Shown: positions 19,151-60,642 of the stretch, in pieces
How the letters are laid out: the number at the start of each line of letters is the position of its first letter
How positions within the stretch are numbered: the first letter of the stretch is position 1
Assembly: GCA_965222035.1 (NCBI GenBank)
Contig: OZ244940.1
Location: 1,287,134 to 1,351,133, forward strand
Length of the DNA stretch: 64,000 nt
Reading direction: 5' to 3'
From: Candidatus Amphirhobacter sp.
Lineage (GTDB): Bacteria; Pseudomonadota; Gammaproteobacteria; Tethybacterales; Tethybacteraceae
Translations under genes and position numbers: made by a program
Notes under the pieces: generated by a model
Seen by the model: the letters and a program-made list of their open reading frames with translations, nothing else
Told to the model about the DNA's origin: nothing
Database searches by the model: none

Positions 19151-19532
19151 AATCTGTAATTATATGCTAGCGGTTGCCACAACCATATCACTTTTAAGAT
19201 ATGTTTTTATGCTGAAAAGAGCGTTAATAGTCAAATTATTGAAAATAAGAAGCAATTGTTTTTACTGAATTTCATTTTTTAAAGGGGCTTGAAATGGCGG
19301 TTTGTGAAAATAAGAATTCAGAGCTAGTGAGAGAGAGCCACCTGGATCCGCCGCCCTTGCCAGCCTTGTTTCCAGCAACGCCACAGCCACCGATTTGAGG
19401 CCAGCATCCAGTGCTTAGCCGGTCCAGCCGCGGCTAAAGAGGGAAAGATGGGATTTGGTCAAGCAGGCCTTGCCACCCTTTTAAGCGTAGAATCTTGGTA
19501 ATAACAAGCGAAATTAGCGTAAAATAAGCGAC

Positions 19533-22500
19533 ATGGCCGCTATCCTGGCCAGGACCTGGCTCAGGATCAGAAAAAAAAAGGGGGGGGGTAGAGCCTTGCA
19601 ACCTCGCGTAGCCACTGCCTGCTTCGCTTTAATCATCCTGCTCGCCGCGGCTGTCGCGCCGGCGCAGCAGGCCAATTGGGTAGACCAGGGACGCGATGGC
19701 GTGTCCCAGACCAGTTATTTCCATTTGCCGAGCACGACGGACAGCTCGACTGGCATCTCGTTCCATCGCAGCCACCCCAGCTGCCGCTTCAACGACGTGC
19801 GGCTGGTGAATCCGCCGACGTGGCTGGAGATGATCAAGTACAACGGGGACGCCAAGGACGGCGACCCCGGCACTCGCTTCACGGTGCGCATGGAGCGAGG
19901 CCATGCCGACGACCGCAGCCTGCGCCTGTCGTTCAAGGCCGGCTCGACCATGCCGACTGGAGCGCACACCCTGTCCCTGGCGGCCGAGCGCCACCTGACG
20001 AGCCCGGGCTGCTTGGGCGTCGCCGCCGCGACCTTGTCGCTGGAGTACACGATTAGCATCTTCGACAACATCTCGTGGATGGCGCAGGGGCTGCAGGCAT
20101 ATTATAACGGCGCGATCTACCGCACCGATGAGCTGGGCGGACTGGCGCTGGACACGGGCTTGCGGCTGCATCGCCGGCCGAACCTTTGCTCGAAGGTCGA
20201 CCTGTCTCTGGTCGGCGGTACCGAGGACTACCTGGAACTGCGCGCCTTTGAGGCGCAAAATGTTTTGTATCAAAGGCGGACAACGCCACCCTCTGGAGGA
20301 ACTACGGTTACCAACGTGGTCCTCAACACCGGGCGGCCGCTGGGCGCAGGAGCCGCCAGGCTTACCAACCTGGTCATGGATCGCGACAGCCCGCGCGACA
20401 GCTACGTGCGCTTGTTTCACAAGGCGAGCGTCGCTGTGTCCGAGGCGCTCGAGATAACCGTCTCGGTTGCATTCGAGACCAGCCGGAGCTGCGGTTTCCC
20501 GGCGACGGTGCGCAAGCAAACGCTGGATTTCATGCGGCATCATGTTGCGCTTGCGCCAACCCAGTACCAAGCCACATGGAAGCTGGAATCCGAGAGCCTG
20601 ACGCCGGACGGACCATTCAGCCCTGTGCGCATGAGAAGGTTCGGTTTAACGCCCACCGGCATTTTCTTAAATCGCTCTTCTTCCCTTTGCGTGGTTACAA
20701 ATATTCAGCTGCTCAACCACACTGACAAATTCGATATCTACGCCTCCGCGGGCGCCGACGCACTTACAGAAAACCAAGGCGATCATGCAATCAAAAACAA
20801 AACCGGCCATGCCATTGCCTGGGTTATACCAGATGGCAAGGATCTGCCCGCTGCGGGTAGTGTCCTGCGGCTGTCTGTGCTCATGCGATCCAATCCCTTT
20901 CAATGCACTAACAACAACATCGCGCCCAGACAGACCCTGGCTTTCGCCTTGACCGTAGCCACGCCGGCGACGTGGGGTGTCCTGGCCGGCGATGTCACAC
21001 GGCAGACGGGACTGCTCCAGCCGTCGGTGATCAGGGCGTCGGCCACACCGACGGACACCGGGGTGCGTTTCCACCGCGGCACCTCCGCATGCCCCTTAGT
21101 GGACATACTGATGCAACCCAATCCGCATTTGGAAATGCAACTGTACAACGGCAACACCGCGACTGGAGCGGGGGTCACCACAATAAACGGCGTGCGCATG
21201 CAGGTTGGCCATGCGGATGATCGTCTAGTGGGACTGCAGTTCCGGGAGCGAGCTACGGTGCCGAATGGCACGCTGACGGTCACGCTAGAGGCGAGCGCAT
21301 CATCTGGCTGCGAGGCTGCGGACGAGCCGTGGCCGTTGACCTTAACCTACACGCTGACAGTGCAGGAGCGCTGGTCGTGGGAGACGCAGAGCCGGGACAA
21401 CTTCGGCACTCAGCTGGAACTCTCGCGGGCGGACCTGGACGGGGCCGGCTTGGTGGCGACCGGCCTGCGGATCCATCGCGACTCCCATGCCTGCCAGAGC
21501 ACCGACGTGGCGCTGGCGGCGGACGCGCCGTCGTACCTGTCGCTGCGGCGCTACACCGCCGCGGGCGCGACGGACGGCGACGCGGCGGCGACGCTGGCCG
21601 GCGTGAACATGTCGGGATCAGGGGCGAATGACCGCCATGTGCAGGTGATGATCGACGGCGGCACGCAGATCACGCCGGGCGCGACCGTGCTGGTCACGCT
21701 GACGGTCAGCCCGAACTCGTCCTGCACCGGCAACCTCCATCCGGAGGCGCAGCAGCTGGTCGGCAAGGTGCTGCCTGTCAATCCGGACGGCTGGGAGAGC
21801 ATCGCCGGCGACGTGGCCTCGCGCCCGCGGATCCTGTTCCGGCCGTCGCAGCTGCGGGCGGCCGCCACGCCGACGGACACCGGGCTGCGCTTCCACCGCG
21901 GCACCGATTCGTGTCCGCTGGTGGATGTGGTGCTGCGGAACACCGATTATCTGCAGCTGCAGCGGTACACCCCCGCCGGCGCCGTGTCGGGCGCGGCGGG
22001 ATCGTCCTTCACCAACGTGCGCATGGCGGCCGGCCATGCCAGCGACCGGCTGGTGGGCGTGCAGTTCAAGGCCGGCGTCCAGGTCCCGGCGACTAGCCTG
22101 ACGCTGACGCTGGTGGCGCAGCCGGTGTCCTCCTGCGTCAATCCGCGCAAGCCGCGGCCGTTGACGATGTCTTACACGTTGGCGGTGGCGGAGCATTGGC
22201 CGTGGCGGCTCAAGCCGCAGGACAATCTAGGCATGGTGGTGAGCCTGGAGGTGGAGAACCTGGCGGTGTCCGGCCCGGTGGCGACCGGGCTGCGGCTGCA
22301 TCGCGACATCCTGGTGTGCTCGAACTTCGACGTGGCGCTGGCGGCGGACGCGCCGAGTTACCTGAAGCTGCGCAAGTACCTGGGCAACGGCGCGACGGAC
22401 GGCGCGGCGGCGCGGTCGCTGACGGGCGTGGACGTGTCCGGCGCGGGCGCGCTCGCCCGGCATGTGCGGGTGGCGATCGACGGCGGCACCAGCTTCACGG

Positions 22501-25500
22501 GCCTGACGACGGTGAGGGTTACGATGACGGTCGCGACCAACGCCTCCTGCGCGAGCGAATCGGGCGCGCCGTCGGCGCGCGCGCTGGTCGGCACGGTGGC
22601 GGTGTTCACGGCGAAGGAGGAGTGGAAGACCCTGGCTGGCGACGTGGCGCGGCGCGATACCGTGCTGTTCAACAGGGTTTACCTCACGGCGACCGACACC
22701 GGGCTGCGCTTCCACCGCGGTACCGACGCCTGCCCGGACGTGGACATCGCTCTGAGCTCGGTCGATCAGCTGCAGCTGCAGTTGTACAACTCCAGCGGCT
22801 CCGCGGTCGGCTCCGCGTCCGATTCCTTCACCAACGTGCGCATGAAGAGCAACGACACCAATGACCGGCTGGTGGGCGTGCTGTTCCCGGCCAATACGAT
22901 CATCCCGTCAGGGACGGGGTCATCGACCCTGACGCTGACCGCGACTCCGAACGCGAGCTGCACCAACCCGGGCAAGCCCGATGATTTGGTGCTGACCTAC
23001 ACGCTGTACGTCGGCGACACCTGGCCGTGGCGGACGCAGGCCCGGGACAATTTCGGCACGACGGTGAGCATGGCGCAGCTGGCCCTGACCGGCACCAATC
23101 CCGTGCCGACCGGGCTGCGGATCCATCGCGATTCGCAAGACTGCCAGGGCACCGACGTGGATCTGGCGTCGGCGTCGCCGAGCTATCTGAAGCTGGGCAA
23201 GTACCGCGCCAACGGCACGGCGGACGGCGCGGCGGCGCGGTCGCTGGATGACGTGTATATGTTCGGCTCGGGCTCGGTCGACCGGCATGTGGAGGTGATG
23301 ATCGACGGCACCACCAGCTTCACGGGCCTGACGACGCTGAAGGTCACGCTGACGGTGGCGCCCGGCCTCTGCGTGGCGTCGACCCTTCCGGATGATGAGA
23401 CGCTGGTCGGCAACCTGGTGATGGTCCCGCCGGAGGCATGGGGAATCCTGAGCGGCGACGTGGCCGCGCTGGCGCGGACGAAGCTGTTCCAGCCGTCAGC
23501 GCTGCGGGCCGCTGCGTCGGCGTCGGACACCGGCCTGCGCATCCACCGCGGCACCGCGGCCTGTCCGGACGTCGATGTCGTGCTGCGGACTGCCCAGCAT
23601 CTGGAGCTGCAGGGCTACGACGCATCAGGGATCGCGACTGGCTCGGCGAGCTCAGCCCTGCGCAACGTGCGCATGCAGTCCATCTCTCCCAACGACCGCC
23701 TGGTGGGCCTGCAGTTCAAGGCGGGCACCCAGGTGACGCCGGGCATGCTGACGGCGACGGTGGAGATGAGCGCGAACGCGTCCTGCACGCATGTGGCCGC
23801 GCCGGCGGGCCTGACGCTGACCTACACCCTCGCGGTGCTCGAGCACTGGCCGTGGCGGACGCAGCCGCAGGACAACATGAACTCGCCGGGCCAAGTTTCC
23901 CAGGGGGCGTTGACCGGGACCACTAATCCGGTGCAGGTCGGCCTGCGGCTGCATCGCGATACGCTGGCGTGCCAGAACGTCGATGTGGCGCTGGCGAGCA
24001 ATGCGCCGTCGTACATGAAGATTGGCAAGTACCGCGCCAACGGCGCGTCCGACGGCGCGGTGGCGCGGTCGCTGACGGGCGTGAACATGTCCGGCTCAGG
24101 CGCGGACGACCGGCATGTGCGGGTGTCCTTCGACGGCGGCGCCAACGTGCAGGTGAACACGGACATCAAGATCACGATGACGCTCACGCCGAACGCTACG
24201 TCCTGTACGGGCGTGGGCCATCCGCCGGCGACGCAGCTGGTCGGGACGGTGATCGTCCGGCGGGGAGCGGCCTGGCTCGAGCTGAACGGCAATGTGGCGA
24301 CGCTCAATCACACCATCTTGTTCCAGCCGTCGACGCTGCGGACGTCGACGACGCCGACGGATACCGGATTGCGCGTGCATCGCGGTACCTCGACCTGTCC
24401 GGATATCGACATCACGCTGCGGACGACCACCCACATGGAGATGCAGAAGTACACCGCCGCCGGCGTCAAGGACGGCGCGGCGTCGATAGCCTTCGCCACC
24501 TTGCGCATGGAGAACAACCACAACAGCGACCGGCGCGTCGGTTTGCAGTTCCGGTCGGGCGTCTCGATAGCGGCCGGCATGCTGACGGCGACAGTGGTGG
24601 TGAGCGCGACGCCGACCTGCGCCGCGGTCTATCCGGTGCCGCTGACGCTGGCCTACACGCTGGCGGTGCTGGAGTACTGGCCGTGGCGCAGCCAGGCACA
24701 GCATAACTTCGGGACCCAGGCGCGGTTCCCCCATCTGTCCTTGGGCGGAACGAATCCGACGCCGACTGGCCTGCGGCTGCATCGCGACGCGCGGGCGTGC
24801 CAGAGCATCGACGTGGCGCTGCATTCGGGCGCGCCGAGTTACCTGAAGCTGCGCAAGCACCAGGCCGACGGCACGGCGGACGGCGCCGCGGCGCGGTCGC
24901 TGAGCGGAGTGAACATGTCCGGCACGGGCGCGGCCGGCCGGCACGTGCGGGTGGCGATCGACAGCGGCAGCGGCCTGGCAGCGAACACCACGGTGATGGT
25001 GACGCTGACGGTCTCGCCCAATTCCTCCTGCGCGGGCGTGGGCCATCCGCCGGCGCAGCAGCTGGTCGGCACGGCGGTGGCGGTGCCGCCGGAGGACTGG
25101 AGCGTACTGGCCGGCGACATATCCGCGGCCGGCCGGCTGCTGTTCCCGCCATCACGGACCAGGTCGTCCAACACGGCGATCGACACCGGGCTGCGGCTGC
25201 ATCGCGGCACCAACGCCTGTCCGGACGTGAACGTCACGTTGCGCAACACCATGCATCTGGAGCTGCGGCGGTATCAAGGCACCCGATCGACCGGCGACGC
25301 GGCGACATTCTTCACCAACGTGCGCATGCAAGCCGGCAACGCCAACGACCGGCGGATCGGGGTGCAGTTCCGGGCGGGGGCGCAGGTCCCGGCGGGCCCG
25401 GTGGAGCTGACGCTGGTGGCGGAGGCGAGCGCGTCCTGCACCGATGCGGCGAAGCCGCGGCCGTTGACGCTGTCGTACACGCTGTCAGCGCTGGAGAACT

Positions 25501-28500
25501 GGCCGTGGCGCAACCAGGCGCAGGACAATTTCGCGACGCGCGCGCAGATCGACGGCGCCGCCGTGCTGACTTCGGGCGCGGTCCCGACCGGCCTGCGGCT
25601 GCATCGCAACATCCTGGTGTGCTCGAGTTTTGACGTGGCGCTGGCGACGGGCACGCCGAGCTACGTGAAGCTGGGTAGTTACCGCGCCGACGGGACGGCG
25701 GACGGCGCGGCGGTGCGGTCGCTGGCGGGCGTGAACATGTCCGGCACGGGCGTGCTGGATCGCCATGTGCGGGTGACGTTCGACGGCGGGACGAGGTTCA
25801 GCGCCAGCGCCATCTTGCGCGTGACCTTGACGGTAGCGACCAACAGCTCCTGCGACAGCCAATCCGGCGCGCCGTCTGCGCAGGAGCTGGTCGCCGAGGT
25901 GGATGTGGTGCCGGCGCAGACGTGGAGCGCGCTGGCCGGCGAAGTGACGAGCCGCGACCGCATCCTGTTCAAGCCCACTCAAATCAGGGCAGCCAACTCA
26001 GCCACCGACACCGGACTGCGGCTGCATCGCGGCACTGCAGCCTGTCCGGATGTCGACATAACCTTGCGCAACACCACGCATCTGGAGCTGCGGAAATACA
26101 ACGGCAGCGCTGCTGACGGCGCGGCGGCAACGTTCTTCAACAACATTCGCATGAAGGCCGGCGACGCCAACGACCGGCTGGTGGGCGTGCAGTTCCGGGC
26201 GGGGGCGACGCTGACGGCAGGTCCGTTTACGCTGACCTTGATCGCGCGCCCGACCTCGGCGTGTACGAACCGGGCCCGGCCGGGTCCGCTGACGCTGGCC
26301 TACACGCTGTCGGTGCTGGAGAACTGGCCGCAGCGCAACCAGAGCCAGGACAATCTCGGTACGCGGGCGCGGATTGCGGCGCTGTCGATAGAGGATGGGA
26401 CCGGCGCGGTGCTGACCGGCTTGCGGCTGCATCGCAACATCCTGGTGTGCTCGAGCTTCGACGTGGCGCTGGCAAGCGGCACGCCGAGCTATGTGAAGCT
26501 GCGCAAGTACCAGACCAACGACACCGCGGATGGCGCAGCGGCGCGCTCCTTGACGGGCGTGGCCATGCTGGGCTCGGGCGCGGCCGACCGCCACGTGCGG
26601 ATCGCGATCGACGGCGGGACGAGCTTCACGCAGCAGACGACCTTGCCCATCACGATGACCTTGTCGACCAACAGTTCCTGCAGCAGCCAGTCGGGCGCGC
26701 CGGCTTCGCATCAACTGGTCGGCACAGTGGAAGTGGTGCCGCCGGCGGCCTGGAGTGCGTTGAACGGCGATGTCGCCAATCGCGACCGCATCTTGTTCCG
26801 GCCGTCGGCGATCAGGGCGGCCAGCTCGGCGATCGACACCGGGCTGCGGCTGCATCGCGGCAACACAGCTTGCCGGGAAGTCGCGGTGATTCTGAACAAC
26901 ACCACGCACTTGGAGCTGCGGCAATACACCAGCAGCGCGGCGACGGGATCGGCGGCGACGTTCTTCCCCTTCGTTCACATGGAGAACAACCATGCCAGCG
27001 ACCGGCGGGTGGGGGTGCAGTTCCGGGCGGGGGCGACGGTCTCGGCGGGCCCGCTGGAGTTGACGCTGGAGGTGGGGGCGAGCTCACTCTGCTCGCATAT
27101 CGCGAAGCCGCGTCCGCTGACGCTGTCGTACACGCTGTCGGTACAGGAAGACTGGCCGCTGCGCAACCAAGGCCAGGACAACCTTGGCACGCAGGCCCAG
27201 CTGCCGGCCTTGTCGCTGAGCGGCGTGTCCGGCGCGGTGCCGACCGGCCTGCGCTTGCACCGCAACATCTTCGTATGCTCGAGCTTCGACGTGGCGCTGG
27301 CGAGCGGCACGCCGAGCTATGTGAAGCTGCGCAAGTACCAGACCAACGGCACGGCGGACGGCGCGGCGGCGCGGTCGCTGACGGGCGTGGCCATGCCGGG
27401 CTCGGGCGCGGCCGACCGGCATGTGCGGATCGCGATCGACGGCGGCACGAGCTTCACGCAGCGGACGACCTTGCCAGTGACGCTGACGATGTCGACCAAC
27501 AGTTCCTGCGCGAGCCAATCGGGCGCGCCGGCTTCGCACCAGCTGGTCGGTACGGTGGTGGTGGTGCCGCCGGCGTCCTGGAGCGAGCTGGCCGGCGACG
27601 TGGACACGCTGGCGCAGACCTTGTTGTTCCAGCCGTCGGCGATCAGGGCGGCCAACTCGGCGACCGACACCGGCCTGCGGCTGCATCGCGGGACCGCGGC
27701 CTGCCCGAACGTGGACGTGACGCTGAACACCACCACGCACCTGGAGCTGCGGCAATACACCAGCAGCGCGGCGACGGGCTCGGCGGCGACCTTCTTCAAC
27801 AACATCCGCATGCAGAACAACCATGCCAATGACCGGCGGGTGGGCGTGCAGTTCCGGGCGGGCGCGACGCTGACGGCGGGTCGGCTGACGTTGACGCTGA
27901 TCGCGCGGGCGAACGCGTCCTGCACGGACCCGGCGAAGCCGCGTGACCTGACGGTGGCGTATGAGCTTGAGATTCGCGAGAACTGGCCGTGGCGCACGCA
28001 AGGCCAAGACAACCTCAGCACGCAGGCGCGGCTGGCCGTGCTGGCATTGAACTCGACCAATCCGGTGCTGACCGGACTGCGGCTGCATCGCGATTCGATA
28101 GCATGCCAGAGCACTGATGTGGCGCTGGCTTCGGATTCGCCGAGTTACCTGAAGCTGCGCAAGTACCAGGCCAACGGCACGGCGGACGGTTCAGCGGCGC
28201 GATCGCTGAGCGGCGTGAACATGTCCGGCTCGGGCGCGGCCGACCGCCACGTGCGGATCGCGATTGACGGCGGCACCAACATAGCGGCAGGAACCTTTTT
28301 GCGGGTGACGTTGACGGTCACGCGAAACTCCTCCTGCACGGGCCAGGGCCATCCGCCGGCGACGCAGCTGGTCGGTACGGTGGCGCTGGTGGCAGCCGAG
28401 GCTTGGGGCGCGTTGGCCGGCGACGTGGCCAACCGCGACCGCATCCTGTTCAAGCCGTCGCAGGTCAGGTCCTCCAACACGGCGACCGACACCGGGCTGC

Positions 28501-31500
28501 GCTTCCATCGCGGCACTTCGGTCTGCCCGGATGTGGACGTGACGCTGCGCAACACCACGCATCTGGAATTGCGGCAATACACTAGCAGTTCAGCGACCGG
28601 CTCGGCGAACACGTTCTTCCGCAACATCCGCATGCAGAACAACCATGCCAATGACCGGCGGGTGGGCGTGCAGTTCCGGGCGGGCGCGACGCTGACGCCG
28701 GGCCCGCTGACGCTGACATTGATCGCGGAAGCGAACGCATCCTGCACGAACCCGGCGAAGCCGGTGCCGTTGACGCAGGCGTACACGCTCTCGGTACAGG
28801 AAGACTGGCCGCTGCGCAACCAAGGCCAGGACAATCTCGGCACGCAGGCGCGGCTGCCTGCCTTGTCGCTGAGCGGCGTATCCGGCGCGGTGCCCACCGG
28901 CCTGCGCTTGCATCGCAACATCTTCGTGTGCTCGAGTTTCGACGTGGCGCTGGCGTCCGGCACTCCGAGCTACGTGAAGCTGCGCAAATACCAGACCAAC
29001 GGCACGGCGGACGGCGCGGCGGCGCGATCCTTGACGGGCGTGGCCATGCCGGGCTCGGGAGCGGCCGACCGCCATGTGCGAATCGCGATCGACGGCGGGA
29101 CGAGTTTCACGGGGTTGACGACCTTGCCAATCACGCTGACGATGTCGACCAACAGTTCCTGCGCGAGTCAGTCGGGCGCGCCGGCTTCGCACCAGCTGGT
29201 CGGTACGGTGGTGGTGGTGCCGCCGGCGTCCTGGAGCGAGCTGACTGGCGACGTGGATACGCTGGCGCAGACCTTGTTGTTCCAGCCGTCGGCGATCAGG
29301 GCGGCCAACTCGGCGACCGACACCGGGCTGCGGCTGCATCGCGGCACTTCAGCCTGTCCGAACGTCGATGTGACCTTGCGCAACACCACGCATCTGGAGC
29401 TGCGGCAATACACCAGCAGCGCGGCGACGGGCTCGGCGGCGACCTTCTTCAACAACATCCGCATGCAGAACAACCATGCCAACGACCGGCGGGTGGGCGT
29501 GCAGTTCCGGGCGGGCGCGACGCTGACGGCGGGCCGGCTGACGCTGACGCTGATCGCACGGGCGAACGCATCCTGCGCCGATGCGGCGAAGCCGCGCGAC
29601 CTGACGGTGGCGTATGAGCTGGAGATTCGCGAGAACTGGCCGTGGCGGACGCAAGGCCAAGACAACCTCAGCACGCAGGCGCGGCTGGCCGTGCTGGCGT
29701 TGAACTCGACCGATCCGGTGCCGACCGGCCTGCGGGTGCATCGCGATTCGCTGGCGTGCCAGAGCACCGATGTGGCGCTGGCGTCGGGTTCGCCGGCATA
29801 CATGAAGCTGCGGAAGTACCAGACCAACGGCACCGCGGACGGCTCAGCGGCGCGGTCGCTGAGCGGCGTGAACATGTCCGGCTCGGGCGCGGCCGACCGG
29901 CATGTGCGGGTGACCTTCGATGGCGGCACCGACCTGGCAGCGGGCACCAACTTGCAAATCACGCTTACGGTCACGCCGAACTCCTCCTGCACGGGCCAGG
30001 GCCATCCGCCGGCGACGCAGCTGGTCGGTACGGTGGCGCTGGTGGCAGCCGAGGCTTGGGTCGCGCTGGCCGGCGACGTGAACAATCGCGACCGCATCCT
30101 GTTCCGGCCATCGGCGATCAGGGCAGCCAGCTCGGCGACCGACATCGGGCTGCGCTTCCATCGCGGCACCTCGGTCTGCCCGGATGTGGACGTGACGCTG
30201 CGCAACACTACGCACCTGGAGCTGCGGCAATACACCAGCAGCGCGGCGACGGGATCGGCGGCGACCTTCTTCACCAACATCCGCATGCAGAACAACCATG
30301 CCAATGACCGGCGGGTGGGGGTGCAGTTCCGGGCGGGCGCGACGCTGACGCCGGGCCCGCTGACGCTGACATTGATCGCGGAAGCGAACGCATCCTGTAC
30401 GAACCTGGCGAAGCCGCTGCCGTTGACGCAGGCGTACACGCTGTCGGTGCAGGAGCAATGGCCGCTGCGTAACCAAGATCAGGACAATCTCGGCACGCAG
30501 GCGCGGCTGCCGGCGCTGTCGCTCGAGGGCGTGTCCGGCGCGGTACCGACCGGCCTGCGTCTGCACCGCAACATCTTCGTGTGCGATAACTTCGACGTGG
30601 CGCTGGCGTCTGGTACGCCGAGTTACGTGAAGCTGCGCAAGTACCAGACCAACGGCACGGCCGACGGCGCGGCGGCGCGGTCGTTGACGGGCGTAGACAT
30701 GTCCGGCTCGGGCGCGAATGACCGGCATGTGCGGATCGCGATCGACGGCGGCACGAGCTTCACGCAACAAACGACCTTGCCGATCACGCTGACGATGTCG
30801 ACCAACAGCTCTTGCGCCAGCCAGTCGGGCGCGCCGGCTTCGCACCAGCTGGTCGGCACAGTGGTGGTGGTGCCGCCGGCGGCCTGGAGCGCGTTGAATG
30901 GCGACGTGGCGAATCGCGATCGCATCCTGTTCAAGCCGACGGAGATCAGAGCTTCCGGCTCGGGAATTGACACCGGCCTGCGTCTGCATCGCGGCACCTC
31001 GGCTTGTCCGAACGTGGATGTGACGCTGCACACCACCACGCACCTGGAGCTGCTGCAATACAGCAGCACCGGGTCGACGGGGGCGACATCGACGTTCTTC
31101 AACAACATCCGCATGCAGAACAACCATGCCCAAGACCGACGGGTGGGCGTGAAGTTCAATCCCGGAGAGACGGTCCCGGCGGGCCCGTTAACGCTGACGT
31201 TGATCGCGAGGGCGAACTCGTCCTGCACGGATCCGGCGAAGCCGCGTGATCTGACGCTGGCCTACACGCTGTCGGTGCTGGAGAACTGGCCGCTGCGCAA
31301 CCAGGGCCAGGACAACCTCGGCACGCAGGCGCGGATGCCAGCGCTGTCGCTCGAGGGCGTGACCGGCGCAATTCCCACCGGCTTGCGTCTGCATCGCAAC
31401 ATTTTTGTGTGCTCGAGCTTCGACGTGGCGCTGGCGTCCGGCACTCCGAGCTACGTGAAACTGCGGAAATACCAGACCAACGGCACGGCGGATGGCGCGG

Positions 31501-34500
31501 CGGCGCGGTCGCTGAGCGCCGTGGCCATGCCAGGCTCAGGCGCGGCCGACCGCCACGTGCGGATCGCGATCGACGGCGGCACGAGCTTCACGCAGCAGAC
31601 GACCTTGCCCATCACGATGACCATGTCGACCAACAGCTCCTGCGCCAGCCAGTCGGGCGCGCCGGTCTCGCATGAGTTGGTCGGCAGAGTGGTGATTGTG
31701 CCGCCGGCGGCCTGGAGCGCGCTGGCCGGCGACGTGCTTACGCGCCCCCGCATCCTGTTCCAGCCATCGGCGATCAGGTCGTCCAACACGGCGACCGACA
31801 CCGGGCTGCGTCTCCATCGTGGTACTTCGGCCTGTCCGAACGTGGACGTTACGCTGCGCAACACCACGCACCTGGAGCTGCGGCAATACACCAGCAGTTC
31901 AGCGACGGGCTCGGCGGCGACGTTCTTCCGCAACATTCGCATGCAGAACAACCATGCCAATGACCGGCGGGTGGGCGTGCAGTTCCGGGCGGGCGCGACG
32001 CTGACAGCGGGTCCATACGCGCTGACATTGGTCGCGAGCGCGAACTCCTCCTGCGCCGATGCGGCGAAGCCGCGTCCCTTGACGCTGGCGTACACGCTTT
32101 CGGTGGAGAACGGCTGGCCGCTGCGCAACCAGGGCCAAGACAATCTCGGGACGCAGGCGCGGCTGCCGGCCTTGTCGCTGAGCGGCGTGTCCGGCGTGGT
32201 GCCCACTGGCCTGCGCCTGCATCGCAACATCTTCGTATGCGACAGCTTCGACGTGGCGCTGGCGAACGGCACCCCGAGTTACGTGAAGCTGCGCAAATAC
32301 CAGACCAACGGCACGGCGGACGGCGCGGCGGCGCGATCGCTGACGGGCGTGGCCATGCCGGGCTCGGGCGCGAATGACCGGCATGTGAGGATCGCGATCG
32401 ACGGCGGCACGAGCTTCACGCAACAAACAACCTTGCCGGTGACGCTGACGATGTCGACCAACAGTTCCTGCGCGAGCCAGTCGGGCGCGCCGGCTTCGCA
32501 TCTGCTGGTGGGCACGGTGGTGGTGGTGCCGCCGGCGTCCTGGAGCGAGCTGGCCGGCGACGTGGACACGTTGGCGCAGACCCTGCTGTTCCAGCCGTCG
32601 CGGGTCCGCGCCTCCAACGCGGCGATTGATACCGGATTGCGGCTGCATCGCGGCACCGCGGCCTGCCCGAACGTCGATGTGACCTTGCGCAACACCATGC
32701 ATCTGGAGCTGCGGCAATACACCAGCAGCGCGGCGACGGGATTGGCGGCGACCTTCTTCAACAACATTCGCATGGAGAACAACCATGCCAATGACCGGCG
32801 GGTGGGCGTGCAGTTCCGGGCGGGCGCGACGTTGACGGCGGGTCGGCTGACGCTGACATTGATCGCGCGGGCGAACGCATCCTGCGCCAATGCGGCGAAG
32901 CCGCGTGATCTGACGGTGGCGTATGAGCTGGAAATACGCGAGAACTGGCCGTGGCGGACGCGGGGCCAGGACAATCTCAGTACGGAAGCGAAGTTGGCTG
33001 TGGCGGCGTTGAACACGACTGGCGAGGTGCCGACCGGCCTGCGGGTGCATCGCGATTCGCTGGCGTGCCAGAGCACCGATGTGGCGCTGGCGTCGGGTTC
33101 GCCGGCATACATGAAGCTGCGCAAGTACCAGGCCAATGGCACGGCGGACGGCTCAGCGGCGCGCTCGCTGACAGGCGTGAACATGTCCGGCTCGGGCGCG
33201 GCCGACCGGCATGTGCGGGTGACCTTCGATGGCGGCACCAACCTGGCGGTGGACATAACCTTGATGGTGACGCTGACGGTCACGCGCAACGCCTCGGCCT
33301 GCTCGGGTTTCGGGCACCCGCCGGCGACGCAGCTGGTCGGCACGGTGGCGATGGTAGCGGCCGCAACCTGGAGCACGCTGCCTGGCGATGTTGCCAATCG
33401 CGACCGCATCCTGTTCCGGCCGTCGGCGGTCAGGTCGTCCAACTCAGCGACCGACACCGGGCTGCGCTTTCACCGCAGCACTACGGTTTGCCCGGACATC
33501 GACGTGACCTTGCGCAACACCACGCACCTGGAGCTGCGGCAATACACCAGCAGTTCGGCGACGGGATCGGCGGCGGCATTCTTCCGCAACATGCGCATGC
33601 AGAACAACCATGCCAATGACCGGCGGGTGGGCGTGCAGTTCCGGGCGGGCGCGACGCTGACGCCGGGCCCGCTGACGCTGACCTTGATCGCGGAGGCCAA
33701 CTCTTCTTGCACCAACCCGGCCAAGCAGCTGCCGCTGACGCTGGCGTACACGCTGTCGGTGCAGGAGGACTGGCCGCTGCGCAACCAAGGCCAGGACAAT
33801 CTCGGTACGCAGGCGCGGCTGCCGGCGCTGTCGCTAGAGGGCGTGACCGGTACGGTGCCGACCGGCTTGCAGCTGCACCGCAACATCTTCGTGTGCGATA
33901 ACTTCGATGTGGCGTTGGCGAACGGCACGCCGAGCTACGTGAAGCTGCGGAAATACCAGGCCAACGGCAATGCGGACGGCGCGGCGGCGCGCTCGCTGAC
34001 GGGCGTAGACATGTCCGGCTCGGGCTCGACCGACCGGCATGTGCGGATCGCGATCGACGGCGGCACGAGCTTCACGCAGCAGACGACCTTGCCGATCACG
34101 CTGACGATGTCGACCAACAGCTCTTGCGCCAGCCAGTCGGGCGCGCCGGCTTCGCATCAGCTGGTGGGCACGGTGGTGGTGGTGCCGCCGGCGGCTTGGA
34201 GCGCGTTGGCCGGCGACGTGGCCGCGCGCGACCGCATCCTGTTCAAGCCGACGCAGATCGAAGCTTCCAACTCAGCGACCGACACCGGGCTGCGGCTGCA
34301 TCGCGGCACTTCAGCCTGTCCGAACGTCGATGTGACCTTGCGCAACACCACGCATCTGGAGCTGCGGCAATACACCAGCAGCGCAGCGACGGGCTCGGCG
34401 GCGACCTTCTTCAACAACATTCGCATGGAGAACAACCATGCCAATGACCGGCGGGTGGGCGTGCAGTTCCGGGCGGGCGCGACAGTGACGGCAGGGCCGT

Positions 34501-37500
34501 TCACGCTGACGCTGATCGCGCGGGCGAATGCGTCCTGCACGGACTCGGCGAAGCCGCGCGACCTGACGCTGGCCTACACGCTGTCGGTACTGGAGAACTG
34601 GCCGCAGCGCAACCAGGGTCAGGACAACCTCGGTACGCAGGCGCGGATGCCGGCGCTGTCGCTAGAGGGCGTGACCGGCGCGATACCCACCGGCTTGCGG
34701 CTGCACCGCAACATCTTCGTGTGCTCGAGCTTCGACGTGGCGCTGGCGTCCGGCACGCCGAGCTACGTGAAGCTGCGCAAGTACCAGACCAACGGCACGG
34801 CGGATGGCGCAGCGGCGCGGTCGCTGACGGGCGTGGCCATGCCGGGCTCGGGCGCGGCCGACCGCCACGTGCGGATCGCGATCGACGGCGGCACGAGCTT
34901 CACGCAGCAGACCACCTTGCCGATTACGATGACGATGTCGACCAACAGCTCCTGCGCCAGCCAGTCGGGCGCGCCGGTCTCGCACCAGCTGATTGGCACA
35001 GTAGTAGTGGTACCGCCGGCGGCCTGGAGCGCGCTGGCCGGCGACGTGCTCACGCGCCCCCGCATCCTGTTCAAGCCGACGCAGGTCAGGTCGTCCAACT
35101 CGGCGGTTGACACCGGGCTGCGCCTCCACCGCGGCACCTCGGCCTGTCCGAACGTGGATGTAACGCTGCGCAACACCACGCATCTGGAACTGCGTCAATA
35201 CACCAGCAATTCGGCGACTGGTTCGGCGGCGACGTTCTTCCGCAACATCCGCATGCAGAACAACCATGCCAATGACCGGCGGGTGGGCGTGCAGTTCCGG
35301 GCGGGCGCGACGCTGACAGCGGGCGCGTTCGAGCTGACATTGATCGTGAGCGCGAACTCCTCCTGCGCCGATGCGGCGAAGCCGCGTCCGCTGACGCTGG
35401 CATACACGCTGTCGGTGCAGGAAGACTGGCCGCTGCGCAACCAGGGCCAGGACAATCTCGGGACGCAGGCGCGGATCGCAGCTCTGTCGCTGAGCGGCGG
35501 GTCCGGCGTGGTGCAGACTGGACTGCGGCTGCACCGCAACATCTTCGTGTGCGACAGTTTCGACGTGGCGTTGGCGAACGGCACTCCGAATTACGTGAAG
35601 CTGGGCAAATACCAGGCCAACGGCACGGCGGACGGCGCGGCGGCGCGGTCCTTGACGGGCGTGGCCATGCCGGGCTCGGGCGCGAATGACCGGCATGTGC
35701 GGATCGCGATCGACGCCGGCACGAGCTTCACGACCTTGACGACGCTGCGGGTGACGATGACCTTGGCGACCAACAGCTCTTGCGCCAGCCAGTCGGGCGC
35801 GCCAGCCTCGCATGAGCTGGTCGGCGCGGTGGAGATAGTCCCGCCGGCGGCCTGGAGCGCATTGGCCGGCGATGTGTCCTCTTTGGCGCGGACCCTGCTG
35901 TTCCAGCCGTCGACGATCAGGTCTTCCAACACAGCTAGCGACACCGGCCTGCGGCTGCATCGCGGGACCTCGGCCTGTCCGGACGTCGACGTGACCTTGC
36001 GCAACACCACGCATCTGGAGCTGCGGAAATACAACGGCAGCACGGCGGACGGATCGGCGGCGACATTCTTCACCGACATTCGCATGCAGCAAGGCGACTC
36101 CAATGACCGGCGGGTGGGCGTGCAGTTCCGGGCGGGGGCGACGCTGACGGCGGGCCGGCTGACGCTGACGCTGATCGCGCGCGCGAACACGTCATGCACC
36201 AATGCGGCGAAGCCGCGCGACCTGACGGTGGCGTATGAGCTGGAGATTCGCGAGAACTGGCCGTGGCGGACGCAAGGCCGCGACAATCTCGGCACGCAAG
36301 CGCAGGTGGCTTCGGTGGCGCTGGAGACGACCGGCCCGGTACCGACCGGCCTGCGGCTGCATCGCGATTCGCTGGCGTGCCAGAGCACCAACGTGGCGCT
36401 GGCGTCCAACGCGCCGAGTTACCTGAAGCTGCTCAAGTACCGGAGCAACGGCACCGTGGACGGCTCGGCGACCCGGTCGCAGACGGCCGTGAACATGTCC
36501 GGCTCGGGCGCCAACGACCGCTACATAGAGGTCGCGGTCGACGGCGGTACCTCCATAGCGGTGGACACCACCTTGGCGGTGACGATGACCATCAGGCCGA
36601 ACTCCTCGTGCACCGGCCGGGGCCATCCGCCGGCGACGCAGGTGGTGGGCACGCTGGTCGTGGTCGAGGCCGCGCCCTGGAGCATGTTGACCGGCGACGT
36701 CGCCAATCGCGACCGCATCCTGTTCCGGCCGTCGGCGGTCAGGTCGTCTGGCTCGGCGACCGATACCGGCCTGCGCTTCCACCGCAGTACTACGGTCTGT
36801 CCGGACATCGATGTGACCCTGCGCAACACCGCGCATCTGGAGCTGCGGCAATACACCGGCAGTTCGGCGACGGGTTCGGCGGCGACATTCTTCCGCAACA
36901 TGCGCATGCAGAACAATCATGCCAACGATCGTCTGGTAGGAGTGCAGTTCCGGGCAGGCGCGAATGTCCCGGCGGGTCCGCTGGCGCTAACGTTGATCGC
37001 GGAGGCGAATTCGTCTTGCACCAATCCGGCGAAGCAATTGCCGCTTACCCTGGCGTACACGCTGGAAGTGCGGGAAGACTGGCTGCTGCGCAACCAGGGC
37101 CAGGACAATCTCGGCACGCAGGCGCGGCTGCCGGCCTTGTCGCTGAGCGGCGCGACCGGCGTGGTGCCCACCGGCCTGCGGCTGCACCGCAACATCCTGG
37201 TGTGCTCGAGCTTCGATGTGGCGCTGGCGAACGGCACGCCGAATTACGTGAAATTGGGCAAATACCAGGCCAACGGCAACGCGGACGGCGCGGCGGCGCG
37301 GTCGCTGACGGGCGTGGCCATGCCGGGATCGGGCGCGGCCGACCGGCATGTGCGGGTGGCGATCGACGCCGGCACGAGCTTCACGACCTTGACGACGCTG
37401 CGGGTGACGATGACCTTAGCGACCAACAGCTCTTGCGCCAGCCAGTCGGGCGCGCCGGCTTCGCATGTGCTGGTCGGCACGGTGGCGGTGGTGCCGCCGG

Positions 37501-40500
37501 CGGCCTGGAGCGAGCTGGCGGGCGACGTGGACACGTTGGCGCAGACCCTGCTGTTCCAGCCGTCGACGATCAGGTCTTCCAACACAGCGAGCGACACCGG
37601 CCTGCGGCTGCATCGCGGCACCTCGGCCTGCCCGGACGTCGATGTGACCCTGCGCAACACCACGCATCTGGAGCTGCGGCAATACACGAGCAGCGCGGCG
37701 ACGGGATCGGCGGCGACGTTCTTCACCAACATCCGCATGCAGAACAACCATGCCAATGACCGGCGGGTGGGCGTGCAGTTCCGGGCGGGCGCGACGCTGA
37801 CGGCGGGCCGGCTGACGCTGACATTGATCGCGCGGGCGAACGCCTCCTGCACCGATGCGGCGAAGCCGCGCGATCTGACGGTGGCGTACGAATTGGAAGT
37901 GCGCGAGAACTGGCCGTGGCGGACGCAAAGGGAAGACAACCTGAGCACGCAAGCGCGGGTGGCTTCGATCGCGCTGGAGACCACCGGTCCGGTGCCGACC
38001 GGCTTGAGAGTGCAGCGCGATTCGCTGGCGTGCCAGAGCACCGACGTGGCGCTGGCATCGGGATCGCCGGCCTACATGAAGCTGCTCAAATACCGGAGCA
38101 ACGGCACGGCGGACGGTTCCGAGGCGCGGACGCAGAGCGGCGTGAACATGTCTGGATCGGGTGCGAGCAACCGCTATGTAGGGGTCACGTTCGACGGCGG
38201 TACTAATATAGCGATTGACACCACCTTGCAGATCACGCTTACGGTCACGCCGAACTCCTCCTGCACGGGCCAGGGCCATCCGCCGGCGACGCAGGTGGTG
38301 GGCACGGTGGTCGTGGTCGAGGCCGAGCCCTGGAGCATCTTGACCGGCGACGTGGCCAACCGCGACCGGATCCTGTTCAAGCCGTCCCAGATCCAAGCGG
38401 GCGCGGCGACTGACACCGGCCTGCGCTTCCACCGCAGCACTTCGGTCTGTCCGGACATAGATGTGACGCTGCGCAACACCGCGCATCTGGAGCTGCGGCA
38501 ATACACCGGCAGTTCGGCGACGGGTTCGGCGGCGGCGTTCTTCCGCAACGTGCGCATGCAGGCCAACCATGCCAACGACCGGCGGATTGGAGTGCAGTTC
38601 CGGGCGGGCGCGAACGTCCCGGCGGGCCCGCTGACGCTGACGTTGATCGCGGAGGCGAACTCTTCCTGCACCAATCCGGCCAAGCAGTTGCCGCTGACCC
38701 TGTCCTACACGCTGGAGGTACGGGAGAACTGGCCGCTGCGCAGCCAGAACCGGGACTCTCTCGGTACGCAGGCGCGGATCGCGGCGCTGTCGGTGGGCAG
38801 CGCGACCGAGCCGCTGCAGACCGGCTTGCGCTTGCACCGCAACATTTTCGTGTGCTCGGAGTTCGACGTGGCGCTGGCGGCGGGCGCGCCGGCGTACCTG
38901 AAGCTGGGCAAATACCAGGCCAACGGCACCGCGGACGGCGCGCCGGCGCGGTCGCTGACGGGCGTGGCCATGCCGGGATCGGGCGCGGCCGACCGCCACG
39001 TGCGAGTGGCGATCGACGGCGGCACGAGCTTTACGGCCCTGACGACCGTGCAGGTGACGATGACCCTGGCGACCAACAGCACCTGCGCGAGCCAGTCGGG
39101 CGCGCCGGCTTCCTATCAGTTGGTCGGCACGGTGGTGATAGTGCCGCCGCAGGCCTGGGGCGCGTTGGCGGGCGACGTGGCGGAGCGGGACGACACCTTG
39201 TTCCGGCCGACGCGGATTCGCGCCTCGAACGCGGCGATCGACACCGGCTTGCGCTTCCACCGCGGCACTTCGGTCTGCCCGGACGTCGATGTGACGCTGA
39301 ACACCACGACGCACCTGGAGCTGCGCCAATACACCAGCAGCGCGGCGGACGGCGCGGCGGCGACGTTCTTCCGCAACGTGCGCATGCAGGCCAGCCACGC
39401 CAACGACCGGCGGGTGGGGGTGCAGTTCCGGGCGCGCGCGACGGTGACGCCGGGTCCGCTGACGCTGACGCTAGTGGCGCGGGCGGCTTCGAGCTGCACG
39501 GCGCTGAACGCGCCGGCGCCGCTGACCATGGCGTACACATTGGCGGCGCTGGAGAAATGGCCGTGGCGGATCCAGGGCCAGGACAGCTTCACCGCGCCGG
39601 CGAGCGTCTATCTCTCGGCCTTGGCGACGACGGGCGTAGTCCCGACCGGCCTGCGGGTGCACCGCAACTCGCCGGCGTGCTCGAGCGTCGACGTGGCGCT
39701 GGCGGCCGGCTCGCCGGCCTATCTGTCGCTGCAGCGCCACAGCGCGGCGGGTGTCGTTGACGGCGCGCCGGCGCGGTCGCTGACGGCGGTGAACATGGCG
39801 AGCACGGGCGCGGCCGCCCGGCATGCGCAGGTGATGATCGCGGGCGGGACCACCTTGACGACCGGCGCGACAGTGATGGTATCGCTGTCGATCGCGCCCA
39901 ACGCCTCCTGCGCCGGTACCGAGGGCGTCCAGGATCTAGCGGACCTGGTCGGCAGCATCCTGGTCCTCGGCCGGGGCCAGGAGGAGATTACGCAGGAATC
40001 GATCCAGGCGGGCAACGCCATGGCGATGCGCATGATGGGGCTGGAGACCCTGGATGCGGTGCTGGCGCGCGGCGCGGCGGGCTCGGGCGCGGCGGCCACC
40101 GAGCAGCTGCTCGGCATGCTGGCGGCCAAGGAAGCCGGGCTGGAGAGCGGCGACATCGACCTGCGCGAGTTCCTTGCGGGCCAGAGCTTCGAGCTGGCGG
40201 CGCGGCCGGGCACCGCATCAGGCGCGGGCGCCGCGATATGGGGCCGCGCGGCCGCCTTCAAGACCGCCTCGACGGTGTCGGCTGCGACAGAGCTGGAAAG
40301 CGAATTGTTCAGCGCGCACTTTGGGGGCGACTACCGCTGGAGCAACGGCTTCGTGCTGGGGCTGGGCCTCGGCCGCCACGAGCTGGAGGGTACTTATAAG
40401 GAAGAGAGGGTTGCCGGCAGCTATCAGCTGGAGCTGGATCTGTACCAGCCGTATGCGGTGATGCCGCTGGGCCCGGCTGGCTGGCTGGCGGCCTACGGCA

Positions 40501-41298: not shown

Positions 41299-41322
41299 GG
41301 CAAAGTGGGATAAAATACGCCT

Positions 41323-44300
41323 ATGGAAGGGCGTTTGATTCGCCATGAAAGGGGGGGGGGTAGCGCCCTTCTAAGCGGCCTGGCGGTTGCGGCCGCCTTG
41401 TTGCTGACGGGCGTGATGATGGCGCCGCAGGCGCATGCTCAGGTGCAGGTTGTCCTAGGAAACCTCCACAAGACAACGGCCGACAAGGTTCTCACTTATC
41501 CCTATGAGGCTGGCCTGACCGGCATCGCTTTCCATGTGACTACATGCGGCGCTCCATCCAACATTGTTCTGCAAACCCGCACCGACGATTTTGACCTGGT
41601 AAGTTATTTCGTCGTACAAGGCCAAATCGGCGTTCGAGAAGGCCGCGGCGACAGCCGAAATGCCGTCGGCCGCGTCCACTACCTGGAGCTAGTTGACGGC
41701 CGGGACAGCCTGCCGGACGGTCCTCTGACCGTTACGGTCAAAGTTTGCAACCAGGCGCCATCGGCCTACACCGTCACGGTGGCGACGTGGTACGACCAGG
41801 GCATGCACAGCGACCGGCCCGCCAGCCGCCACGTCCGAGACATTGCGCCTGGCCAAGACACCGGCATCGCCATTCATCGCAGCGCCAACACGTGTCGCTT
41901 CACCGACGTGCGGCTGGCGGCCGGCGCGCCGGCTTGGCTGGAGCTGCGCCGGCATCGCGCCGACGGCACCGCCGACGGCGACGCCGGGCAGCGTTTGACG
42001 GCGCGGATGGAGAAGGACCATGCCGACGACCGGCATGTGCGCGTGCGCTTCAAGGACGACGCCAGCATGGAGCCGGGCAGCTATGTGTTCTCGATCGTGA
42101 TGGCGCGCACGGCGACCAGCGGCGCGGGATGCACCGCCGCGAGCGCGGCGGCGTACACGCTAGGCTACACCCTCAACATCAGTTTGGGAGCCAGCTGGGA
42201 ACGTCAGGAATCCCTGAACAGCGACAGCGTCACAAGCCACAGTGCGGATGCTTTGGGCGGGCCGTTCGCATTGGCGATGGGCCCGCGCATCCACCGCAGC
42301 TCCTCTTCATGCCGGTGGACGGACGCGAGCCTGGTGGCCGGCGGCTCGTTCTTGGCTATGCAGCGCTACGCCACAACGGGCAACGAAGCGGTTGGCGCGC
42401 CGGCGACCAGCGTGACCGACGTGCGCATGCAGCGCGGCTCTCCGGGCGATCGATATCTCGGCTTGATCTATCGCCGGAATACGCCAGTGCCAGCGGGGAC
42501 GGTGACCGCGGCGGTGGAACTCAAGCCGGCCGCGCGCTGCGCGAATTACGTCGGCATCCCCGGGCCGCTGACGCTGAGCTTCACCGCCACGATCGGCGCG
42601 GCAGCTGCCAACACGGAGCCCTGGATCATCAAGACCGGCTTCGCGAGCTCGGCGCCGACCATCTCGGTCTTCAGCCCGGCCAGCATCCACACGTCCCGCA
42701 CATATAGGGAAATACATACCGGCATCTTCATCGGCCGGCGCACGGCGACTTGCAACGATTATTCCTACAACCTGCTCAATCACCGCGATCTGTTCGAAGT
42801 CGGATACTATCCACTTCACACAGGCTACCAAGACAATATTCAACCCGACGATTCGTTTAGCCGGAATCGCTCCTTCAATTTCGGTGACAACGATGGAGGC
42901 TTCGGCCTGCAGTTCGAGGCCGGCGCGCAGCCGGAGCCGAACACCACCATCACCCTGCATGTGGCGCTGGGCAGGTTTAGATGCGGCAGCCCCGCGCTGA
43001 CCACGCTGTCGTACACCATGACCATTGGCCCGGCGGCGCCCTGGGGAACCTTGGCGAACAATGTCGCGACGGTGACCACGCTGTTCAGGCCCACGCAGCT
43101 GGCGGCCGCCGCGTCGGCGACCGACACCGGCATCCGCTTCAACCGCGGCGTGGCGACGAGCATCTGCACGAACGTGGACGTGGAGCTGGCGAGCGGCAGC
43201 CGCACCCATGTGGAACTGCAGAAGTACAACGGGACGGCGGCCGACGGCGCGGCGGCGGTTTCGTTCGGGGGCCTGACCATGCATGCGGGCGCGACGGGCA
43301 ATCCGGTGGGCCTGCAGTTCAAGGCGGGCGCGTCGGTGCCGGCCGGCGTCCTGACGGTGGCGGTGATCGCCAAGCCCGCCGGCAGCTGCGATCATGCGGA
43401 AGAGCCAATCCCGCTGACGGTGAATTATGAGCTGGTGGTGGGCGAGCGGCAGCCGTGGCAGGTGCACGATCTCGACAGCATGGGACGGGTGGTACTGCTC
43501 GACGGCTTTGCGGCGCAAAGGAGCGCGGCCGACTCCGGCCTGCGGGTGCACCGCAAGCTGAGCGGCTGCAGCTCCATGGATGTGTCGCTGCCAGACGACG
43601 CGCCTGATTGGGCGATGCTGCAGCAGCATGGCCCGAGCGGCCCGGTCGGCGCGCGCGCGCGGACCCAGGCGGCGGTGCCGATGGCGGGCTCGGGCGCGGC
43701 CGGCGACCGGCATGTGCGGCTGATGATCGTGCCGTCGGGGACGCCCCTGCCGGATGCGCGGCTGACGATGGGCGTCGCGGTGGCGGCCAACGCATCATGC
43801 GGGGCCGGCAGCGACATTCCGGCGCCGCAGATGCTGTCGGGCGTGGTGGTGTTTGACACCCAAGGCGTGGGCACGGAGCAGGCGATCCAGGCGGGCGCTT
43901 CGGCGGCGGTACGGGCAATCGGCTTGGAAACCCTGGACGCGGTCATGGCGCGGCCGGACGCCGTGGCCGGATCATGGTCCAGCGAGCTGCTCGGCTTGAT
44001 GCACGCGCACGAGGCCGAGCTCGAGCGCGGCGAGTTCGAGCTGCGGGACCTGGCGGGCGAGGAGTTCGCGCTGGCTTTGTCGAACAGTCCGACCGGCTTG
44101 CCGGCGGGCCTGGCCCTGTGGGGACGTTTCGCTGCCTACGATGTCGGCAATGAGATCGAAGGCGGCGCGCGCTCGGACAATGAATTGTTCAGCGCGAGCT
44201 TCGGCCTCGACTACCGCCTGCGCGCGGGCATGATGCTCGGCCTGGGCTATGGCCACCACGAGATCGACGGCAGCTACGCTGCCAGCTCGGCCAGCGGCAT

Positions 44301-46463: not shown

Positions 46464-46644
46464 GATTTGTATTTTACCCTTGCAAGAGGCGGAAAAAGCA
46501 AAAACAGGGGCTCCATGCTTGGCTTGGAGCGCTGCCAGCCCATCTTGGCCTGGTCCTCAATCAACGTTGCGCTCAGGCAACAACAATGCCGAGCATGCCC
46601 GCCTGCGGACAGGCTCCCTGCCAGGCATGCTTTAAAATCTCCGC

Positions 46645-48432: not shown

Positions 48433-48512
48433 GATTGGCCGGCGGGCTCCGGCTTCGGCGGTTTCCTGTATTGTAAAATGGCTTGAGATGGCCGCAGGAT
48501 TCTTGGATGAAA

Positions 48513-48521
48513 GGGGGGGGG
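48513..48521 (+). repeat. Poly-G (G9) tract; the length puts the upstream ATG and signal peptide out of frame in paralog D
   Basis: The context gatgaaagGGGGGGGGGtagcggccctctag matches E (G10) but has one G fewer. Confidence 0.8.
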
Positions 48522-52269: not shown

Positions 52270-52324
52270 GGTTGGCCGGCGGGCTCCGGCTCCGGCGGTT
52301 TCCTGTATTGTAAAATGGCTTGGA

Positions 52325-57416: not shown

Positions 57417-57550
57417 TTGTATTTTACCTTCGCAAGGGGCGAGAAACATAAAAACAGGGGTTGCATGCTCATGCAAGCCATCGCATGCAAGATGGTAGCA
57501 TTGAGGATCAGCCGCCACCGCAGGCATTTCCGCATAAAATAACATTTGCC

Positions 57551-58560: not shown

Positions 58561-60642
<2,082 letters not shown>

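Follow-up and report, generated by a model that had tools for sequence, protein, structure and literature searches.

How does a protein with a pair of cysteines in each of dozens of passenger domains leave the cell, if it leaves as autotransporters do? The question is raised by W1, a giant gene in the 64,000-nucleotide stretch of contig OZ244940.1 that was analysed here (the window, taken at its full length). An earlier note on this DNA had identified the product of W1 as an autotransporter and had called its paired cysteines anomalous, on the premise that autotransporter passengers are poor in cysteine or have their cysteines closely paired. That premise agrees with the view of the field as stated in passages of PMC8151025 and PMC10269718: proteins belonging to the type V secretion system (T5SS) are described as cysteine-poor, with the cysteines closely spaced, and the chlamydial Pmps, with up to 18 cysteines, as a notable exception (PMC8151025). 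We consider that W1 is probably a type Va (classical) autotransporter made up of immunoglobulin (Ig)-like domains, each stapled by an intradomain disulfide, and presumably serves as a giant surface adhesin.

W1 is a single open reading frame (ORF), and its translation begins with a Sec-type signal (basic n-region, hydrophobic h-region, alanine-rich c-region). Domain 1 comes directly after the signal peptide, and a predicted barrel forms the C-terminal end. The parts are as follows.

19533..41258, + strand: giant gene W1, a predicted autotransporter; signal peptide, 49 domains, helical linker, beta-barrel; 7,241 residues
19533..19673, + strand: Sec-type signal peptide of W1, residues 1-47; basic n-region, h-region FALIILLAAAVA, c-region APAQQA; read from the translation
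19571..19588, + strand: A9 + G9 tract of W1, codons 13-19 (RKKKGGG); candidate site of slipped-strand phase variation
19650..39980, + strand: tandem array of Ig/cadherin-like domains of W1; 49 domains of about 138 residues, A and B types alternating
34185..34601, + strand: domain 36 of W1, the modelled copy; an all-beta sandwich in AlphaFold2, predicted local distance difference test (pLDDT) 91
39933..40175, + strand: predicted alpha-helical linker of W1, from the last domain to the barrel; model residues 2-82
40185..41258, + strand: predicted C-terminal beta-barrel translocator of W1, type Va-like; at least 12 long strands and 4-5 shorter ones; ends ...LRLQLRIGD; no cysteine

The array had previously been placed at 21450-39700. 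It is indeed there, but it starts about 1.8 kb upstream of that, at about 19,650, and ends near 39,980, the first cysteine codon lying at 19782 and the last at 39909. An ortholog from another assembly (P0061, 7,249 residues) is 92% identical to W1, has an identical architecture, retains all 99 of its cysteines, and has in common with it the N-terminus MAAILARTWLRIRKK(K/R)GGG.

Those 99 cysteines, counted by script, are distributed with great regularity. One of them, C30, lies in the h-region of the signal peptide and is the sole cysteine without a partner. The other 98 are in the passenger, where they are paired consecutively, C84/C160 being the first of the 49 pairs and C6716/C6793 the last, and there is no further cysteine in the roughly 6,770 residues of the passenger, nor any in the last 450 or so residues of the protein (again by script count). 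The anomaly of two cysteines per domain is thus real, and stronger than was claimed for it. Within a pair the cysteines are 72-78 residues apart, with a single exception of 101; in the regular part of W1 the distance is 73 in A-type domains and 77 in B-type domains. From the second cysteine of one domain to the first of the next is 61-65 residues. The earlier note had counted about 46 domains with cysteines about 78 residues apart, and while the pairing stands, the number of domains is to be replaced by the figure given here. The two strings that it quoted, HRGTSAC and NASCT, are present eight and seven times.

The A-type domains carry the signature …TGLRLHRGTSACPxVDV…NASCT…, and the B-type domains …TGLRLHRNIFVCSSFDVALA…NSSCAS… (also HRNIFVC...NSSCAS). 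Neighbouring domains (A versus B) are about 27% identical, those two apart 61-70%, and those four apart 66-77%; the most divergent are the N-terminal domains 1-3, with 26-33% identity to any other. Repeat periods were taken from autocorrelation. The domain period is about 138 residues, and the A+B unit is 276 residues or 828 nucleotides, beyond the period limit of Tandem Repeats Finder; a higher-order period of four domains was also seen, at about 1,653-1,656 nucleotides. Across all 49 domains only four columns of the alignment are invariant: G35, R40, C45, and C118. Because two of the four are cysteines in spite of the low identity between A and B domains, the conservation of the cysteines exceeds what recent duplication or chance would give. 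The sequences around them also contain sequons: one of these (N-[AS]-S-C) precedes the second cysteine in 36 of the 49 domains, and the passenger (19674-39977) has 100 N-x-[ST] sequons as against 63 +/- 7 in shuffled sequences, a figure inflated by the inheritance of repeats.

The pattern extends well beyond W1. An exhaustive search with a profile of the 49 domains against 1.84 billion representative proteins gave 52 proteins with the domain, W1 (as P0009) among them. In local scans with hidden Markov models, every complete member with a signal peptide follows one plan: signal peptide, from 1 to 49 domains, helical linker, and a barrel of the W1 type. Outside W1, 162 of 165 full-length domain matches have cysteine at both columns, and in the other three the cysteine is 2-4 residues off owing to alignment slips, so that the corrected figure is 165 of 165. 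Passenger cysteine counts are even across the family, and the barrels are free of cysteine except that of P0036, which has four. The cysteine pair belongs to the domain rather than to the barrel, because P0003 and P0007 carry cysteine-free Ig-like passengers on the same barrel family. Four further members lie in the window.

41323..45150, + strand: paralog W2; 1,275 residues; signal peptide, 6 cysteine pairs (5 domains by profile), W1-type barrel; G10 at 41351-41360
46645..48432, + strand: paralog W3; 595 residues; signal peptide, one domain, two cysteines 76 apart, W1-type barrel
48488/48571-52269, + strand: paralog W4; 6 cysteine pairs and barrel; G9 at 48513-48521
52325..56113, + strand: paralog W5; 1,262 residues from the ATG at 52325; 6 cysteine pairs and barrel; G10 at 52350-52359, in frame

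W3 is the minimal natural member of the family, whose known spread so far is AqS2, a symbiont of the sponge Amphimedon queenslandica (members P0006, P0007, and P0010), and a handful of uncultured assemblies; a scan of genome contigs with one of the alignments brought up no relative.

What kind of domain is it that carries the pair? Neither the repeat block of W1 nor its N-terminus has a significant match in Pfam or NCBIfam. Domain 36, modelled by AlphaFold2 with the 49 internal copies of W1 as the alignment, was all-beta with eight strands (mean pLDDT 91, predicted template modelling score 0.85), and Foldseek found no match to the model in the PDB at E<=0.001. The repeat is on this prediction an Ig/cadherin-like Greek-key beta-sandwich without a close solved relative. 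In the model, C45 occupies a loop or turn between strands 32-41 and 47-52, and C118 a loop between strands 104-114 and 127-135; going by generic Ig topology, these would be the B-C and F-G loops, which would put both cysteines at a common N-terminal tip of the sandwich. Coupling analysis (mutual information with average product correction, on 156 non-redundant domain sequences in which the cysteines are at profile positions 46 and 123) has top pairs that bridge the two cysteine segments (39-117, at rank 2, 50-120, and 45-119), and this lends weak support, since the split between A and B subtypes confounds it. The repeat was also considered as a true cadherin domain (PF00028), and this was rejected, there being no Pfam match and, on inspection of the alignments, no calcium-binding linker motifs. 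Cadherin extracellular domains are similar to it in fold only, with about 10% identity; they are about 110 residues long as against about 138, and their motifs DxNDN, DRE, and DxD are absent from the W1 repeat.

The C-terminus is the part on which the identification of W1 as an autotransporter depends. Searches of PDB sequences with phmmer and with a profile returned nothing, and a word-indexed protein search gave three homologs for the C-terminus and two fragments for the repeat unit. In a large protein database that held few homologs, the C-terminus matched P0003 (25% identity, 90% coverage, E 5e-12), a protein that itself carries Pfam Autotransporter and a He_PIG Ig domain. The barrel relatives P0003, P0036, and P0029 score 35.5, 27.8, and 25.6 bits against PF03797, where the cut-off is 26. 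AlphaFold2, given 14 family sequences as the alignment, produced a model in which a helical part of about 80 residues is followed by 12 long antiparallel strands, an insert of low confidence, and 4-5 further strands. The best structural matches of the model are type Va translocators, including the helix that precedes them, so the W1 C-terminus is predicted to be an alpha-helical linker leading into a barrel with the translocator fold. Structure prediction and transitive homology together identify it as a divergent autotransporter barrel, and the original identification is upheld on these grounds. The last strand, LRLQLRI, has alternating hydrophobic residues, and complete members of the family mostly end in R[IL]G[DE], with a few in WLE or LLGD, the distant P0003 ending ...ELRF. 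The insert in the barrel, P-x-RGGLGPSFALRPGYGL... (seen at 40185-41258 of the window and in the C-termini of the family), is highly conserved in sequence and left disordered by AlphaFold.

If W1 is such a protein, Sec would move the chain into the periplasm, the beta-barrel assembly machinery (BAM) would insert the barrel, and the passenger would exit domain by domain, C-terminal end first and N-terminal end last, through or together with BAM and its own barrel. The folding of each emerged domain outside could act as a ratchet and give the process its direction, as with the Ig-like domains of intimin (PMC6555100). Once outside the cell, the disulfide staples would harden a filament of about 0.2 micrometre against unfolding and proteases. 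The timing of the disulfides is more difficult. Because the barrel is synthesised last, the whole passenger of about 6,800 residues has to wait in the periplasm, and because it must wait there, oxidation of the DsbA type before passage through the outer membrane is the favoured order of events. Consecutive native pairs would suit vectorial oxidation by a Dsb system. Oxidation before export is the weakest step of the proposed mechanism, and our judgement of it is almost evenly divided, with a slight lean to the doubtful side; if it occurs, the barrel and BAM together would pass loops of about 75 residues closed by disulfides.

As to the bonds themselves, one within each domain, 49 in all, is most likely, because W3, P0002, and P0038, with a single domain each, contain two cysteines, 76 apart, and no more, a fact that also excludes obligatory pairing between domains. 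Since the cysteines of adjoining domains (second to first) are spaced no less regularly than the two within a domain, one might think of interdomain disulfides, or else of intermolecular ones like those of chlamydial PmpD, which forms disulfide-mediated higher-order structures (going by a title cited in PMC9289746). Interdomain bonds would, however, leave the first and last cysteine of every array unpaired, and we regard either arrangement as highly improbable. Hardly more credible is the notion that the two cysteines form no disulfide and instead, with a near-invariant His and Asp, hold Zn2+ or another metal ion in a structural role. Residues that might serve are certainly conserved, as the position six before the first cysteine is His in 47 of the 49 W1 domains, the one five before it is Arg in all 49, and the one four after it is Asp in 45. 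But no known metal-site motif was matched in Pfam or NCBIfam, thiols outside the cell of an aerobic marine bacterium would readily oxidise, and exported proteins with disulfides are classically recognised by just such a pattern, two cysteines per domain and no others.

Several observations weigh against the disulfide-stapled autotransporter itself. The last 452 residues of W1 have no autotransporter match in Pfam or NCBIfam even at E<=1, the barrel model is of moderate quality only (pLDDT 69), with its disordered yet conserved insert and 4-5 extra strands, and the protein ends in Gly-Asp rather than the usual aromatic residue. The placement of the two cysteine loops at a shared tip derives from generic topology and not from the coordinates of the model. 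Among the scanned ORFs of the 64-kb window, and the window is the scope of this result, no dsb gene (DsbA and DsbB included) was identified. Finally, disulfide loops of more than 20 residues in Pet are described as incompatible with translocation (in a passage of PMC10269718 that cites Leyton 2011), and fusions of CtxB and PhoA to autotransporter translocators were impaired when disulfide-bonded (PMC1533851), results that argue against oxidation before export. The irregularities of the barrel, along with a beta region of about 340 residues where about 250-280 is usual, are what one would cite in favour of a barrel that is an outer-membrane anchor only, with a passenger exported by some other machine or remaining periplasmic. 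The earlier note had raised the former as a possibility, and it finds no support: W1 has an N-terminal Sec signal and no RTX or type I secretion system (T1SS), type IX, or sortase-type C-terminal signal, the architecture is fixed throughout the family, the best structural matches of the barrel are translocators with their helix, and scans of window ORFs against Pfam and NCBIfam identified no gene for type I, II, or IX secretion. Since a rod of 49 domains is also ill-suited to a periplasmic role, we give the anchor very little credence. A more serious competitor keeps the same intradomain disulfides and changes only their timing, the cysteines staying reduced in the periplasm (shielded by chaperones, or because DsbA is weak or missing) and becoming oxidised as they emerge into oxic seawater or the sponge mesohyl. 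The results with Pet, CtxB, and PhoA favour this, and consecutive pairs would be joined correctly in export from the C-terminal to the N-terminal end as well. Against it, 98 thiols would have to dwell in the periplasm until the barrel is made, there is no catalyst outside the cell, and aerobic proteobacteria as a rule have DsbA systems. We think it unlikely, though far less so than the anchor.

Returning to the stapled autotransporter with oxidation in the periplasm, passage of disulfides has precedents. The lectin domain of intimin is secreted with a disulfide made by DsbA, and IcsA is a further case within T5SS (PMC8151025); disulfide-bonded single-chain variable fragments and Ig domains were actively displayed by the IgA-protease (type Va) translocator in dsbA+ cells (PMC1533851). 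These cases, together with the Pmps, soften the anomaly that was first noticed, while leaving 49 loops of 73-77 residues as an extreme outlier. We doubt, without dismissing it, that the W1 family exports dozens of already oxidised, possibly pre-folded Ig-like domains with disulfide-closed loops of about 75 residues in the classical orientation. If it does, then the channel would be wider than in the classical model of a 12-strand pore, either a hybrid of BamA and barrel or a barrel made larger and carrying the conserved insert.

How much folding or cross-linking is tolerated at the outer membrane has been argued for some thirty years, almost entirely by means of artificial fusions, and the W1 family offers a natural case. 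If its cysteines are oxidised in the periplasm, then classical autotransport tolerates loops far above the limit of about 20 residues seen with Pet. If they are not, then the cell needs a means to keep 98 thiols reduced. The single domain of W3 makes this protein of 595 residues a ready-made minimal substrate and the question experimentally tractable.

The 5' ends of the paralogs have features of their own. Homopolymers of at least 8 nucleotides occur in the 64-kb window only at the 5' ends of the coding regions of W1 (A9+G9), W2 (G10), W4 (G9), and W5 (G10), hence in all paralogs but W3, where they encode Gly-Gly-Gly just before the core of the signal peptide. In W4, the ATG at 48488 and the signal peptide are put in different frames by the G9 tract, and one more G would restore the frame; in its near-twin W5, with G10, the frame is intact. 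W4 looks like a phase-OFF gene, and the arrangement as a whole looks like slipped-strand phase variation of a set of adhesins, to judge from the tracts. At the orthologous locus L086 the tract is A8G8 as against A9G9 in W1, on a contig from a 2.3x long-read assembly. All five paralogs also have TAAAAT 8-9 nucleotides upstream of the ATG (about 19519-19524, 41309-41314, 46631-46636, 48473-48478, and 52310-52315), which could be a -10 box, giving leaderless transcripts or transcripts with very short leaders, or a common element of translation initiation.

Other genes lie close by. The adhesin cluster is followed 2.4 kb downstream, at 58561-60642 (+), by a gene for a homolog of TMEM260-like GT-C glycosyltransferases (PF11028, E 1.9e-14). 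In humans, TMEM260 attaches O-mannose to Ig-like (IPT) domains, and it is pure speculation that the protein encoded here could modify domains of the W1 family in the periplasm. Two genes for AAA_22/STAND-like P-loop ATPases, 79% identical to each other, are interleaved among the paralogs on the opposite strand (45306-46463 and 56256-57545, both -), and an AAA_22 gene is also found near P0007 in a contig of AqS2 (L085 21252-21968, -). The two in the window were considered as accessory factors in export and set aside, as they match no secretion-related family. Directly upstream of W1, across an AT-rich spacer of about 380 nucleotides, is a gene with Schlafen/AlbA_2 and HATPase_c_4 domains (17522-19150, -), and a neighbour of the Schlafen/AlbA_2 type is present in the orthologous contig L086 as well (261-584, -). 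The GC content of the window falls to about 0.56 at 8-10 kb and 18-20 kb.

The window contains dnaA, dnaN, and gyrB, and so lies near the replication origin. The genes dnaA and dnaN are usually adjacent; between them here is an ORF of 280 residues without a family match (2684-3526, +). The GyrB protein is 68% identical to that of one uncultured gammaproteobacterial metagenome-assembled genome and about 50% identical to those of other Gamma- and Betaproteobacteria. The host is a proteobacterium and hence diderm. It may also be a sponge symbiont, because AqS2, which has been placed in the Tethybacterales of the Gammaproteobacteria (PMC12166358), is the only named source of family members. Adhesion domains of the cadherin type have been reported to be enriched in sponge microbiomes (PMC10947273). 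The family enlarges the surface repertoire of the poorly known gammaproteobacterial lineage that contains AqS2 by a domain of the Ig/cadherin-like kind, so far unannotated, and by a cluster of adhesins that may be phase-variable.

Where does W1 belong among known systems? In its predicted form it fits the structural definition of type Va, and it lacks two traits that are typical but not essential, an aromatic C-terminus and a beta-helical passenger. Autotransporters of this type, such as Hbp, EspP, AIDA-I, NalP, BrkA, and EstA, have a beta-helix or an alpha-helical enzyme as passenger, whereas W1 has 49 Ig/cadherin-like sandwiches, and the domain model shows nothing of the beta-helix with autochaperone that is typical of the type. 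The missing beta-helix does not exclude W1 from type Va, because EstA-type autotransporters also have none (PMC5767081). A class of tandem Ig-like passengers is absent both from a survey of 1,523 autotransporters (PMC5767081) and from the 2022 classification (PMC9289746). W1 differs further in its 98 cysteines in pairs 73-77 residues apart, where few and closely spaced cysteines are the norm (PMC8151025), in its longer beta region with a conserved insert, in its ...RIGD end, in having no direct Pfam match, and apparently in size, since its 7,241 residues seem to put it far above the well-studied examples. The chlamydial Pmps are likewise cysteine-rich members of type Va, with their up to 18 cysteines in the passenger (PMC8151025), but their passengers are beta-helical (PMC11166332) and their cysteines do not follow the pattern of a pair for each Ig-like repeat.

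In its passenger, W1 resembles type Ve (intimin, invasin, and their relatives with long Ig arrays), which has tandem Ig-like domains and whose secretion is energised by their sequential folding (PMC6555100). Because the W1 passenger consists of Ig/cadherin-like sandwiches and not of a beta-helix, secretion of this intimin-like kind is the proper comparison. In type Ve, however, the barrel is N-terminal and made first, and the passenger leaves from its N-terminal to its C-terminal end, an order of barrel and passenger that is reversed in W1. The giant repeat adhesins of T1SS (LapA, SiiE, and the ice-binding type) have thousands of residues of tandem Ig-like repeats that form a long surface filament, and are similar to W1 in this, but they have no Sec signal, carry a C-terminal RTX/T1SS signal, and are driven to fold by calcium, while W1 has a Sec signal and a barrel. 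W1 is best described as an intimin-like passenger on a classical autotransporter and, because there are precedents within T5SS, as an extreme variant rather than a new route of secretion.

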